This document shows positions 10,361-42,340 of a DNA stretch of 64,000 nucleotides, in pieces. Where the stretch lies: positions 2,464,001 through 2,528,000 of the forward strand of contig OZ241326.1 of the NCBI GenBank assembly GCA_965199855.1, read 5' to 3'. The stretch is from a bacterium (GTDB lineage Bacteria; UBA8248). The notes below the pieces were generated by a model. That model made no database searches. It had not been told where the DNA came from and worked only from the letters and a program-made list of their open reading frames with translations. The position numbers and the translations under genes are program-made. Each line of letters begins with the position of its first letter. Within the stretch, counting starts at the first letter, position 1.

Positions 10361-10759
10361 ATGATCAGGAAAACGGACGCGCAGTGGCGGGAGCAGCTGA
10401 CGAAGGAGCAGTATCGCGTCACCCGGAAGGCGGGAACCGAGCGCGCCTTCAGCGGAAAATACTGGGACTGCCACGAGGACGGCCTCTACGCCTGCGTCTG
10501 CTGCGGGGAGGCGCTGTTCGACTCGGCCGCCAAGTTCGACTCGGGCACGGGCTGGCCGAGCTTCTTCGCGCCCATCGAGGCCGGGCGCGTGGCCGACGCG
10601 GAGGACAACTCCTTCTGGATGCGCCGCGTGGAGGCGCTGTGCGCGAACTGCGGCGCGCACCTGGGCCACGTCTTCCCCGACGGCCCGCCGCCCACCGGAC
10701 AGCGCTACTGCGTCAACTCCGCCTCGCTCGACCTCAAGCCGCGCGAGGCGTCGCCGTAG
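10361..10759 (+). CDS. msrB: Peptide methionine-(R)-sulfoxide reductase MsrB
   Basis: GTERAF, Cxx[31 protein letters not shown]; start at MIRKTD. Confidence 0.95.
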
Positions 10760-11081
10760 GGGTCGGGAACCGCCCGCGCCCCGTCAACGGGAACGGCGCG
10801 GGACGCATATATGCGTCCCCTACATACGAAATCGAACGCCGCCCGACCCCGTAGGGGGCGCATATATGCGCCCCGTTGCGGGCCCGGCGACGACACGGAT
10901 TGAATTCGTAGGGACAACCCCCTGTGGTTGTCCTTCGCGCGTATTCCCGCCCCACCAACGCGCGACCATCCCGTAGGGGTCGTTCGGGAACGACCCGCCG
11001 CCTCCGACGCGAATGTCTTTTGAATGCGGGCGGTTCCCGAATCGCGGGGCGGCCCCGGGGAGGGATCGCCCCTGCGAAACC
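10755..11081. repeat. Composite GTAG-type REP cluster, copy 1 (direct repeat of 14069-14402)
   Basis: Successive GTAGGG-headed imperfect palindromes: GGGACGCATATATGCGTCCCCTAC (inverted), GTAGGGGGCGCATATATGCGCCCC, GTAGGGACAACCCCCTGTGGTTGTCC, GTAGGGGTCGTTCGGGAACGACCC. Confidence 0.85.
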
Positions 11082-11338
11082 TGAAACCCGCGCGCCTCGC
11101 CGAACGGGGCGAACCCTCGCGGCGCTGCGCGCGCTCCGCCCCTTCCCGGCCGCTTTTCCGGCAGCGGGTTGCCGTCCGCAGCGGATTTTGATAGCCTCCC
11201 GCAACTCGTCGCATCCGCTCCCCCCGAGGCGCGCCCGCTCTCTGCCGTGAGGAGACGATACTTTTCATGCGTGAACCGCCGCCTTCGCGCCGGAAAACCA
11301 GCGATCTCCCCGTCCGCGCCTGCGAATCTCCCGCGGCG

Positions 11339-11367
11339 TTGCGCCCCGCGGCCGCCCGTGCTATAGT
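11339..11367 (+). promoter_or_regulatory. Sigma70-type promoter of the autotransporter unit
   Basis: TTGCGC-17 bp-TATAGT with an extended -10 TG (GTGCTATAGT); ends 8 bp before the octamer repeat. Confidence 0.7.
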
Positions 11368-11375
11368 GAATCGGA

Positions 11376-11565
11376 AACTTCCCAACTTCCCAACTTCCCA
11401 ACTTCCCAACTTCCCAACTTCCCAACTTCCCAACTTCCCAACTTCCCAACTTCCCAACTTCCCAACTTCCCAACTTCCCAACTTCCCAACTTCCCAACTT
11501 CCCAACTTCCCAACTTCCCAACTTCCCAACTTCCCAACTTCCCAACTTCCCAACTTCCCAACTTC
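11376..11565 (+). repeat. Perfect octanucleotide tandem repeat (AACTTCCC) x23 plus partial unit
   Basis: Counted directly: 11376-11559 = 184 bp = 23 units, then AACTTC. Confidence 0.97.
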
Positions 11566-11720
11566 TTGAAGATCGGGACGCCGTCTCCTCTTCTCCTGAC
11601 GGCGTGAAGCGGCGCGTGAAGCCCGCCCCCTCGCGGAGGCGCGCCGCGTCATCCCCTGACGACAGTCCCGGCGCGTTCATGGCAGCGCGCCCTTCTCGTT
11701 CAATCGAAAGGACAGTTCAC

Positions 11721-13970
11721 ATGCGAAAGACGATTTTTGCGGAAGCGCCCGCTCTTTCTTCGTTCAGAAGGCCGCGGGGCCGCCGCTCGAAGGGAGGAAT
11801 CTTCGGCCCGCTCCTCGCCGCGCTTCTCGCGGCGGCGTGCCTGCTTTCCGCCGGGGCGGCGCGGGCGCAAAGCGACTGCGGGACGCAGGAGGAGCCGGAA
11901 GAAAGGGCGCCTCAGAGGGGGGGAGGCTTCATCTTTATTGGAGGCCCGGGCCGGATAGAAGGAACTGTGGAGATTCGTAATCGGTCGCCGATTCATCTGA
12001 CGCACGAAGGGACGATCACCGCCGAGGAGGACGGCGTTCGGGCGTGCCACCCCACAGAGCGCGACGACAACCCCGAGATCGCCGTAACCATCGCCGAGAG
12101 CGGTCGGGTCACCGGCGGGCGGAACGGCATCTACGTCGGGAGCGCGGGTCTCGTTGAGGGGAGCGACTCTCTCCGCGACCAGAGCGTTACCGTGAACGGG
12201 CGGGTTTCGGGCGGAACGGGCGCGGGCGTCTATATGAAGGGCGGCGGCCGGCTGACCGTGGGCGCTACGGGCGTGGTGGGCGCGGAATCGGGCGTGGGCG
12301 TTTTGTCGGACGGGTCGGGGGATTTGACGGCGACCGTGGCCGGGCGGATCGAGGGCGACGTCCGCAACGCGGGGGGCGCGCTCATGCTGACGACGACGGC
12401 GGGGAGCGTGATCACGGGAACCGTCCACGATCCCGTCGGCCCGGTGATGGTTCCGGGGAGCGTCGGGCGGATTTTGCTGGCGGAAGGCGGGGAGGTGACG
12501 GTTCCCGCCGCGGGTCGGCTCACGGGCGTGGACGGAGAGGCGCTCCGGAGCGAGGCGGGCGACCTGCGCGTCTCCATAGCCGGGAGGATCAAGGGCGACG
12601 TCCGGAGCCTGGGCGGCGACCTCACGGCGACGATATCCGGGACGGTTGAAGGCGACGTGGAGGGTCTGGGGGCGGGCGATCACGCGGTCACGGTCTCCTC
12701 GGGCGGCGTGGTGACGGGGGAGATTCATCTGGCGGCGAGCGCCGTGACGGTGGACGGAACCGTGGGCAGCGTTCGCTTCGACGGCGGCGGAACCCTCACG
12801 GTGGGCCCGACGGGCCGGATTCTCTCGCGGGCGGGGGCGGCGGTCAGCAACGCGGAGGGCGACCTGGGCGTGACGATTCACGTAGCCTCCGGCGAGCGGC
12901 CGGATCAGGCGGCCGCGCGGGTTCAGGGGAGAATCGAGGGCGCGGCGGACGGCGAGACGACCGTGACGCTGGTCGGGGCGAGCGGGCGCGCCGTCCGTCC
13001 GGGCGCGATCGGCTCGCGGGAGGCGGCGCCCTCGGGCGCCTACGACGTGGGCGTGTCGGCGTCCGCGGGGGGCGGCGTCTCCGTCGTGAGCGTCTTCGCT
13101 CCCCGCGCGCGGGTCTATGAGGCGCTGCCCTCCGTTCTGCTGGGCATGAGCGGCCTTCTCTCGCATGAGGAGCGCATGGCGTCGCCCCGCTCGTCAAGGG
13201 GCGTCTGGGCGCGCGTGGAGGGCGCGAGCGGCGACTGGAAGGCGGACGCCTCGACCAGCGGGGGCGTGGAATACGAAGCGAGACGCTACGGCGTCCGCGT
13301 AGGCGTGGACGCCTCTCTCGGCGCGAACGCCCTGCTCGGCTTCTCCGCCCATCACGGGCGCGGCTCGGCGGATGTTGCGGACGGCGGGGATATAGAGGTT
13401 TCCGGGAACGGTCTGGGCGTCTCCGCGTCCTACATGTTCGGCGGGGGCCTCTATCTGGACGGGCAGGTCGAGGCGACCTGGCATGAGGCGGATCTGGAAT
13501 CCGACCTGCGCGGCAAGCTGAAAACCGGCGTCTCCGGCTTCGGCTGGGCGGCGGGCGTCGAGCTGGGTCGCCGGGTGGAATCGGCGGGGCTCCTCTTCAC
13601 GCCGAGCGCGCGTCTGACGCGGGCTTCCGTTTCGATGGACAAGTTCACGGACGCGGTGGGCTCCGCCGTCTCGCTCGAGGACGGCGACCGCTTCACGGGC
13701 GGGGTGGGGATGCGCGTGGAGAAGGAGACGGGCGCGGGGCGTCTGTTCGTCGCGGTCGGCTTCGAGCATGACTTCTCGGCGAAGACGAGCGTGGAGGTCT
13801 CGGACGTCCGGCTCGAATCCGAAGGCGAGCCCTCGAGGCTTCGCCTGCGCGCGGGCGGCGTCCGCGCCTGGAGCGACGGCGAATACGCCGTTCGCGGCTC
13901 CGTGGACTACGCGACCTCCGGCGACGGCCACGAGCTCGGCGGAAGCCTGAGCCTCCAGGTGCGGTTCTAG
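11721..13970 (+). CDS. Type Va autotransporter (adhesin-like beta-helical passenger plus beta-barrel)
   Basis: Signal peptide ending AARA-Q; G/V/T-rich repeats (GDLTATVAGRIEGDVR, GDLRVSIAGRIKGDVR); RARVYEALP linker; GVWAR barrel start; C-terminal LSLQVRF. Start behind an AAAGGA RBS. Confidence 0.9.
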   Translation: MRKTIFAEAPALSSFRRPRGRRSKGGIFGPLLAALLAAACLLSAGAARAQSDCGTQEEPEERAPQRGGGFIFIGGPGRIEGTVEIRNRSPIHLTHEGTITAEEDGVRACHPTERDDNPEIAVTIAESGRVTGGRNGIYVGSAGLVEGSDSLRDQSVTVNGRVSGGTGAGVYMKGGGRLTVGATGVVGAESGVGVLSDGSGDLTATVAGRIEGDVRNAGGALMLTTTAGSVITGTVHDPVGPVMVPGSVGRILLAEGGEVTVPAAGRLTGVDGEALRSEAGDLRVSIAGRIKGDVRSLGGDLTATISGTVEGDVEGLGAGDHAVTVSSGGVVTGEIHLAASAVTVDGTVGSVRFDGGGTLTVGPTGRILSRAGAAVSNAEGDLGVTIHVASGERPDQAAARVQGRIEGAADGETTVTLVGASGRAVRPGAIGSREAAPSGAYDVGVSASAGGGVSVVSVFAPRARVYEALPSVLLGMSGLLSHEERMASPRSSRGVWARVEGASGDWKADASTSGGVEYEARRYGVRVGVDASLGANALLGFSAHHGRGSADVADGGDIEVSGNGLGVSASYMFGGGLYLDGQVEATWHEADLESDLRGKLKTGVSGFGWAAGVELGRRVESAGLLFTPSARLTRASVSMDKFTDAVGSAVSLEDGDRFTGGVGMRVEKETGAGRLFVAVGFEHDFSAKTSVEVSDVRLESEGEPSRLRLRAGGVRAWSDGEYAVRGSVDYATSGDGHELGGSLSLQVRF

Positions 13971-41698: not shown

Positions 41699-42340
41699 AT
41701 GCCCAGACTTCACAAGGTTCGCCAGTTCAAGCCCTACCTCATGCGCTACCTGCACTCGAACGACCCGAACTACGAGCCGGTTCTGAGAGACCTGTTCGAG
41801 CACGAGCACGCGGTCTATGACGACATCACGGCGAGCGAGGAGACGGATTTCCGGCGAGGCGAGCGCGGAACCCAAACTTGGCACGTCGTTTTCACCGAGC
41901 TGACCGACATCCTGACGCCGTTTCACATCGAGCAGCTCTTCGAGCGTCTGGAGAAGGATTTCTCGGCCACCTGCCGGCTCATGCGCGAGACGCCCGCGCC
42001 GGAGCCTGCGGAGAGCGCGTCCGGCTTCCGTCCCTACCTCATGCGCTACCTCCTCTCCGGCGACCCCAACTACGAACCCGCGCTCCGGGATCTGCTCGAG
42101 CACGAGAACAAAGCCTACGACGCCGTCACGGCGAGCGAGGAGACGGATTTCCGCCGAGGCGAGCGCGGAACCCAAACCTGGCGCGCGGTCTGCGGCGAGC
42201 TCGCAGGCGTCCTCTCTCCCGGACAAATCCGCGAGCTTTTCGAGAGGCTGGAGAAGGATTTCTCGGACACCTGCCAGCTCTTCCATGAGATGGCCGAGGC
42301 GCAAAAACTCATCGAGACAGAAGAAGGCGGACCGGGCTGA
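41699..42340 (+). CDS. Hypothetical protein with two tandem ~100-aa repeats
   Basis: PYLMRYL.S.DPNYEP.LRDL.EHE...YD..TASEETDFRRGERGTQTW...LFERLEKDFS occurs twice; GC3-rich codons; RBS and TGATAGAAT extended -10 upstream. Confidence 0.85.
   Translation: MPRLHKVRQFKPYLMRYLHSNDPNYEPVLRDLFEHEHAVYDDITASEETDFRRGERGTQTWHVVFTELTDILTPFHIEQLFERLEKDFSATCRLMRETPAPEPAESASGFRPYLMRYLLSGDPNYEPALRDLLEHENKAYDAVTASEETDFRRGERGTQTWRAVCGELAGVLSPGQIRELFERLEKDFSDTCQLFHEMAEAQKLIETEEGGPG

Follow-up and report, generated by a model that had tools for sequence, protein, structure and literature searches.

In Haemophilus influenzae, the adhesin genes hmw1A and hmw2A carry a simple sequence repeat (SSR), (ATCTTTC)n, that overlaps the -10 element of promoter P2 and is transcribed within a long 5' untranslated region (UTR), and expression falls as the copy number rises (PMC8262952; PMC2424069). 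According to work published in 2025, ten repeats and a G-rich arm form a hairpin that is cut by RNase III, and repeat change needs transcription (PMC12721329). In Moraxella catarrhalis, uspA2 has an (AGAT)n repeat in its 5' UTR and uspA1 a poly-G tract (Attia and Hansen 2006 and Lafontaine 2001, cited in PMC4679880). The variable number tandem repeat of clbR on the Escherichia coli pks island, (ACAGATAC)n, has an 8-bp unit, 2-20 copies and a transcription start site mapped 16 bp upstream (PMC7364221); pil1 of Streptococcus gallolyticus is controlled by a leader-peptide attenuation switch built on (GCAGA)n (PMC3894217), and the Helicobacter pylori tlpB leader contains a G-repeat targeted by the small RNA (sRNA) RepG (PMC8295292). 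Here, we describe a perfect 8-bp repeat, (AACTTCCC)n, in front of an autotransporter (AT) gene in a 64,000-nt stretch of bacterial DNA (contig OZ241326.1, positions 2,464,001 to 2,528,000; hereafter the window). Sequence and analogy suggest, with a probability of roughly 0.55, that the array is a hypermutable SSR in a transcribed leader, tuning AT expression by its length in a manner similar to hmw.

The window lies within a single contig of 3,043,534 bp and 67% G+C (genome G000); a sister species of the same genus is referred to as G001. The locus comprises the following elements:

11339..11367, + strand: proximal promoter-like element with -35 TTGCGC (11339-11344), a 17-nt spacer, TG (11359-11360) and -10 TATAGT (11362-11367), found by sequence reading

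11376..11565, + strand: perfect (AACTTCCC)x23.75 array with a G-free sense strand and a predicted transcription start 0-2 nt 5' of it, found by Tandem Repeats Finder (TRF)

11566..11720, + strand: remainder of the leader, structured, with a terminator-like hairpin at 11670-11691 and the Shine-Dalgarno (SD) sequence AAGGA at 11708-11712, from RNA folding and a hairpin scan

11721..13970, + strand: AT gene P0001, 749 aa, from open reading frame (ORF) and Pfam analysis

From its 5' end the locus thus reads TTGCGC, a 17-nt spacer, TATAGT, 8 nt (GAATCGGA), the array, a 155-nt leader and the ATG. TRF (period 8, 23.8 copies, 100% matches, score 380) and sequence reading bear out an earlier note on this DNA, which had placed a perfect 8-bp repeat 8 nt behind an extended -10 promoter and about 155 bp before the start codon (array end 11565, ATG 11721), with the caveat that a promoter scan returned nothing at this site. 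Of the 35 TRF rows of the window, no other exceeds 3.4 copies of a short unit, and the (AACTTCCC)n array occupies a single locus in the genome. Its unit has four C and no G on the sense strand, and the complement GGGAAGTT fits a G3N5 pattern, both as previously read. We call the element a promoter because of its extended -10, its 36-nt -35 to -10 block being 89% identical to the G001 loci L042 and L049, and the recurrence of -10-like boxes before sister arrays. SSRs before adhesin genes usually act by classical phase variation, such as the GCAA repeat of Lav (PMC9022572), in which slippage shifts the reading frame inside the coding sequence or alters -35/-10 spacing. Such a role is scarcely credible for an array that is placed after the -10 and stops 155 nt short of an ATG with its own SD, at which the G001 homologue also starts in the alignment. 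The earlier note had set frameshifting and spacing changes aside; this holds insofar as the array is outside both the AT ORF and the -35/-10 spacer, but an upstream ORF (11267-11569, see below) keeps a frame-dependent mechanism alive.

Array length varies between strains. A protein search with an antisense ORF spanning the array retrieved a counterpart, P0002, from a 3,033,334-bp contig of a near-identical genome, with a 52-aa repeat run between the same flanks. At DNA level this run amounts to 158 nt (19.75 units), compared with 190 nt or 23.75 units in the window, a difference of exactly four units; the length is thus not invariant, invariance being part of what the earlier note would have counted against its proposal. 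On entering the repeat, P0002 is in the frame of window ORF 10705-11652, and on leaving it in that of ORF 10820-11680, with matching flanking residues. A further protein, P0004 from a 15.6-kb contig, has a repeat run equal to that of the window. Sponge and marine metagenome runs also contain the stretch; the comparison there was made with contigs and covered the part 10800-11460. The unique upstream region, promoter and first 30 nt of the array occur in contigs from runs X1, X3 and X9, which belong to three studies, with 0, 3+1 and 3+1 differences to the window, respectively. The depth ratios between repeat bin and flank, 19 for X1 (20 being expected for 23.75 copies), 31 for X3, 42.5 for X9 and 36 for X11, provide a weak hint at longer tracts, weak in that other organisms may contribute identical 31-mers and inflate the ratios. 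At least 120 unrelated metagenome stretches contain the 24-mer (AACTTCCC)x3, and none of the 80 that were fetched has flanks like this locus, one 26-nt match being due to chance; the scan gave no strain information and shows the 24-mer to be common in unrelated DNA. A search with the N-terminus of a fused form of upstream ORF and AT yielded mosaic paralogues in the other genome, of too uncertain orthology for counting copy-number differences at other arrays.

The array belongs to a genome-wide family, which the earlier note did not notice. A survey of G000 for perfect repeats with units of 4-12 bp and at least 4 copies, combining TRF with an exact-repeat scan, identified 18 repeats, five with 4-6.5 copies and 13 with 12-58 copies. 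The 13 long arrays have units of 7-8 bp, namely CCGACTCA at nine loci, CGCAGAC at two, and CCGCCTCA and AACTTCCC at one each. Every one of them lies upstream of an AT beta-domain gene in the same orientation, which argues against a chance association of arrays with 12 or more copies; conversely, 12 of the 17 PF03797 matches in the genome are preceded by an array. One gene has two (G000:C1:1185893-1186985), (CGCAGAC)x58 behind TGaTATGAT and, approximately 410 nt further on, (CCGACTCA)x34.75 behind TATACT. A -10-like hexamer is found 4-9 nt before 11 of the 13 arrays, compared with 2.6% of random genome positions, and the combination with a TTG-type -35 at 16-18 nt before 10 of 13, compared with 0.26%. 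Two arrays scored zero, one of which has TGaTATGAT 1-3 nt upstream, while the other begins after two imperfect units behind TATACT; in all, 12 of the 13 have a -10-like box within a few nt upstream. Across G000 and G001, four -10 types adjoin arrays: CATACT, TATAGT, TATGAT and GATGAT. The CCGACTCA paralogues share a layout of TTGnCC, 17 nt, CATACT, 4 nt and the array, after which the SD and GTG or ATG of a signal-peptide ORF come within 2-28 nt; a promoter cannot fit into so short a stretch, and these arrays must therefore be transcribed. Their conserved TTGnCC-17-GGCATACTG blocks are read in different frames at different loci, placing the conservation at the nucleotide level. Arrays of the CGCAGAC type (G000 positions 1186579 and 2141818, and G001 locus L057) have the extended -10 TGaTATGAT and no upstream ORF.

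The same survey bears on the possibility that the arrays are hypermutable and yet functionally neutral, expanding at transcription start regions and being tolerated there without any tuning. Copy numbers across arrays range from 7 to 58 with no obvious optimum, as neutrality would allow. We nevertheless regard this explanation as quite unlikely, given that all 13 long arrays precede AT genes, of which this 3.04-Mb genome has 17, that the same applies in G001, that the sense strand is always the C-rich one, and that in experimentally studied analogues copy number alters expression (PMC8262952; PMC7364221).

Several further observations concern these arrays and the AT genes. Two of the five AT genes without an array (G000:C1:1972309 and 955972) have G11 or G12 tracts roughly 65 nt ahead of the open frame; these tracts lie behind TTGACn-17/18-TATnnn boxes and beside a C-rich stretch, resembling uspA1-type poly-G switches in leaders. 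The arrays at G000:C1:2194250 and 2441703 have flanks of only ~68% identity but share a length of exactly 293 nt (36.6 copies), which may reflect coincidence, an upper limit or a preferred length. Every CCGACTCA unit contains GACTC, matching GANTC, the CcrM methylation site of Alphaproteobacteria. GTAGGGGCGGTTCGGGAACCGCCC comes after heptamer arrays. GTAG-headed palindromes resembling repetitive extragenic palindromic (REP) elements are present at window positions 10800-11098 and directly after both (CGCAGAC)n arrays, and the REP-like part of the window reaches a contig depth up to ~100 times that of the unique flank.

We also analyzed 60 further genomes of relatives. Three consecutive copies of AACTTCCC were found in none of the 60, and three of CCGACTCA in G001 only. 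G001, a single 3.09-Mb contig, has 17 AT matches, and long perfect arrays in the same layout are present at 11 of the 17 AT regions fetched (eight CCGACTCA, two CGCTCAA and one CCGCAGA). The locus itself is not syntenic there, as the gene after msrAB is not an AT. Homologues of the proximal promoter are instead found at two G001 AT genes, where they are followed, about 9 nt behind TATAGT or TAGGCT, by (CGCTCAA)x7.1 and x10.1. A different unit behind a homologous promoter indicates conservation of the position but not of the unit sequence. These two G001 copies are 100% identical over 300 nt of downstream flank, yet three units apart in array length. The same-genus genome G008 has no AT matches and G019 has three, the best of which is a GDSL-type gene without an SSR. 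At L042 1330-1400 (G001:C1:1291830-1291900), a decayed CCGACTCA-type cassette, made up of GGGATACTGGCG, two degenerate units and a GTGAGGGCGCGG start, is located just upstream of the TATAGT/(CGCTCAA) cassette, which is evidence for cassette shuffling between AT genes. Several G001 loci (for instance L041 1200-1400) carry REP-like hairpins between the post-array ATG and the AT signal-peptide region.

Compared with the described systems, the array has, as far as its sequence can tell, the anatomy of the hmw repeats: it adjoins a putative -10 box, varies between strains and precedes a large adhesin gene. In both cases the SSR is at or next to the -10 of the promoter thought to drive the gene and forms the first part of the long 5' UTR in front of a large secreted adhesin, transcription being predicted here; the unit is not a multiple of three, the sense RNA is G-free and pyrimidine-rich, and copies number in the tens and differ between strains and paralogous loci. 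Differences are the protein class, type Va autotransporters here versus two-partner secretion in hmw, and the size of the family, with 13 arrays of four to five unit types at 12 of 17 AT genes. The copy-number effect on hmw expression is experimental, whereas the present family is known from its sequence. The hairpin partner of the hmw mechanism is not predicted either: duplexes between the array and the next 350 nt are no better than those of shuffled sequences (z -0.51), and at 11 of 12 loci |z| stays below 2, with one exception at z -3.2. The uspA2 and uspA1 repeats likewise precede the coding sequence of an autotransporter-class adhesin, within its untranslated leader, and their copy number depends on the strain and changes expression (cited in PMC4679880); they differ in being a tetranucleotide and a homopolymer that are not G-poor, do not adjoin the -10 and occur at single loci. 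The clbR array shares the 8-bp unit and a position in the 5' UTR, and its copy number shifts reporter activity about 2-fold; it differs in belonging to a regulator gene rather than an adhesin gene, in that more repeats give more expression, and in being a single locus (PMC7364221). The tlpB leader resembles ours in having a variable repeat in an mRNA leader, with graded control there, but requires a complementary sRNA (PMC8295292). RepG-like control was rejected as a candidate, since no 12-mer copies or complements of AACTTCCC, CCGACTCA or CGCAGAC units exist outside the arrays in G000.

How the length of such an array might be read out was approached via the predicted properties of its RNA. 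The AACTTCCC array RNA is 190 nt long, with 50% C and no G, and 20 units have a minimum free energy (MFE) of 0.0; the mean pair probability is 0.09 in the array and 0.58 in the rest of the leader. All five unit types have more C than G on the sense strand, lack start codons and are predicted to be unstructured, with sense MFE values of 0 to -15 kcal/mol for 20 units, compared with -7 to -100 for antisense. C-rich, G-poor and unstructured RNA is characteristic of Rho entry sites. The array is considerably longer than the ~70-80 nt or more of such RNA expected of a Rho utilization (rut) site, and a rho gene is present in G000 (PF07497, E 2.9e-36). The Rho readout is favored on account of these shared properties of all unit types, together with the missing hmw-type hairpin partner. 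Premature termination by Rho depending on leader length would hence be the most likely readout, although in itself it is possible rather than probable; decay or processing depending on leader length would be an alternative.

The earlier note had also considered a G-quadruplex (G4) or i-motif, and indeed a template-strand (GGGAAGTT)n quadruplex or a coding-strand i-motif might hinder or modulate RNA polymerase according to tract length. Twelve AACTTCCC units provide nine overlapping starts of the G3N1-7x4 pattern, ViennaRNA with G4 terms gives -15.7 compared with 0.0 kcal/mol, and the hmw work discusses a possible G4 in the G-rich arm (PMC12721329). However, G3 or C3 runs are present in none of the four other unit types, including CGCTCAA at the homologous G001 promoter, and 5-nt loops combined with the need for strand opening make for a marginal structure. 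As the G3 runs are unique to AACTTCCC, G4 formation is not the common principle, and the shared architecture does not need it. We consider it very unlikely as the explanation and, at most, a local extra. Of the rheostat proposed in the earlier note, the graded part has an exact experimental precedent in hmw (PMC8262952; PMC12721329), Rho loading is compatible with the composition of all unit types and with the rho gene, and the G4/i-motif part is weakened by this restriction to one unit type.

A frame-gated upstream ORF offers a different readout. Two further elements of the locus are relevant to it:

11169..11197, + strand: weak candidate upstream promoter (P-up) with TTGCCG, 17 nt and TGa-TAGCCT, from sequence reading

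11267..11569, + strand: upstream ORF with an SD-like GAGGAG (11249-11254) and ATG (11267-11269), running through the array to TGA (11567-11569), from the ORF list

According to this explanation, transcription begins upstream of 11267, ribosomes starting at ATG 11267 cross the array, and the unit number sets the frame in which they leave it; their reach would decide on shut-off by the structured leader, a hairpin or Rho, producing an ON/OFF pattern with a period of three units. The array has no start codon of its own, yet it could be translated from the upstream SD and ATG if transcripts begin upstream, whereas a rut site should be free of ribosomes. At the present length ribosomes would stop at TGA 11567-11569, one additional unit would lead them in frame into the AT ORF, and one unit less to a stop at 11605-11607; the AT frame is open from 11370 (an 866-aa open frame), and units of 7-8 bp fit such gating. 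The mechanism has its precedent in pil1, where the SSR is also inside a small upstream ORF before a surface-structure gene and the exit frame decides how far ribosomes reach into a structured leader (PMC3894217). The pil1 switch depends on a terminator that is proven and on a promoter ahead of its leader ORF, for both of which the candidates at our locus are weak, and has no promoter box adjoining the repeat. P-up was missed by the promoter scan; its block GCGGATTTT..TA.CCT is also kept in the G001 homologue L046. The terminator-like hairpin at 11670-11691 fits the explanation in position, but has a poor U tail, and the number of hairpins in the scan (three found, 1.6 expected) is not above that of shuffled sequences; an Rfam search of 10760-11800 returned two sub-threshold chance matches and assigned the leader to no family.

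Comparison of upstream regions speaks on both sides of the upstream ORF. SD-preceded ATG or GTG codons open into the array at 19 of 24 arrays in G000 and G001, compared with a mean of 0.30 in shuffled sequences, and the alignment of 16 CCGACTCA-type upstream regions reveals a promoter ~100-115 nt upstream and a G-rich SD with ATG, besides the proximal TTGnCC-17-GGCATACTG. At the window locus, GAGGAG..CTTTTCATG is common to L046, in which GAGGAG..CTTTTCATGCnTGAACCG is conserved. On the other hand, the 24 arrays represent only ~6 independent promoter types, with an upstream ORF in four of the six and 0.3 expected for each, so that this count is not decisive; none of the three CGCAGAC arrays has one. 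The ORF frame is open in L046, but is closed by a TAG in the -10 box of L049, the closest promoter homologue, and its peptide is not conserved, with one synonymous change among six differences in the first 10 codons compared with L046. The G001 homologues have a TGA in the AT frame 63 nt before the ATG. Finally, the -10/-35-like boxes adjoining arrays in four promoter types are left unexplained by this model, and as they are read in different frames across loci, these proximal boxes are nucleotide-level elements. We therefore judge frame gating rather unlikely, if worth serious attention.

Length-dependent tuning from the proximal promoter is the reading we prefer. Transcription from TTGCGC-17-TGcTATAGT would start at the first unit or 1-2 nt ahead of it, and the mRNA would open with ~190 nt of G-free, C-rich, unstructured RNA devoid of start codons, followed by the 155-nt structured leader with SD and ATG. 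Slippage would alter the number of units, the variation between strains being seen and the process presumed, and unit number would set the amount of full-length translatable mRNA, acting as a graded knob as at hmw P2. Several points weigh against it. A consensus sigma-70 scan of 10600-12000 returned no promoter, neither the proximal element nor P-up, the former being missed because its -35 matches at 3 of 6 positions. The C>G bias on the sense strand relies on ~4 independent unit types (p ~0.06). A conserved SD and ATG lie 109 nt upstream of the array with an ORF open into it, and in the CCGACTCA family a conserved promoter with a better match lies ~100-115 nt upstream of the arrays, which makes transcripts including the upstream ORF plausible. 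Unit lengths are 7 or 8 bp throughout, never a multiple of three, as a frame-dependent switch predicts.

The gene behind the array is a type Va autotransporter by its features, with an AT beta-domain (PF03797, residues 495-718, E 5.6e-32) forming a C-terminal barrel and an N-terminal signal peptide, the latter recognized by eye (basic n-region, hydrophobic core, ARA-Q). Three distant matches in other genome contigs (37-41% identity) were uninformative on leaders. Within G000, residues 133-749 match the C-terminal part of a 1265-aa AT at G000:C1:1782368, which is located behind (CCGACTCA)x20, with 633 of 653 aligned residues identical. One passenger end and barrel is thus found under two different cassettes of promoter, repeat and N-terminus, and from these sequences the sharing (window 12117-13970) appears to be due to recent duplication or gene conversion. 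Elsewhere in the window, positions 41732-42280 hold a tandem repeat with a 300-bp period (1.8 copies, 78% matches), and positions 1-2000 have 46% G+C compared with ~67% elsewhere.

A broader and speculative proposal, which we put forward as doubtful, is that interchangeable promoter-plus-repeat cassettes run the AT repertoire. The unit sequence would be irrelevant, any G-poor, unstructured repeat free of start codons at a start site would serve as a length-dependent Rho entry, and the start-site position itself would make the tract mutable via initiation-driven slippage, at which the dependence of hmw repeat change on transcription hints. This would explain unrelated units at the same nucleotide position behind homologous promoters in sister species.

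In our literature search we met with no account of this repeat family. If length-dependent tuning applies, contingency loci acting as volume knobs, known mainly from a few respiratory pathogens, would extend to most adhesin genes of an organism occurring in sponge and marine metagenomes. The family represents a natural experiment, in which five unrelated units occupy one position behind promoters, all with C>G and unstructured; shared position and composition of unrelated units point to a readout of length or composition and away from a sequence-specific one. As the RNase III hairpin of hmw is not predicted here, the family makes a second mechanism testable, either Rho loading or a frame-gated upstream ORF. 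Its interest lies in the scale of the family, in the exchange of units at a position that stays conserved, and in what may be a second readout mechanism for repeats in 5' UTRs.

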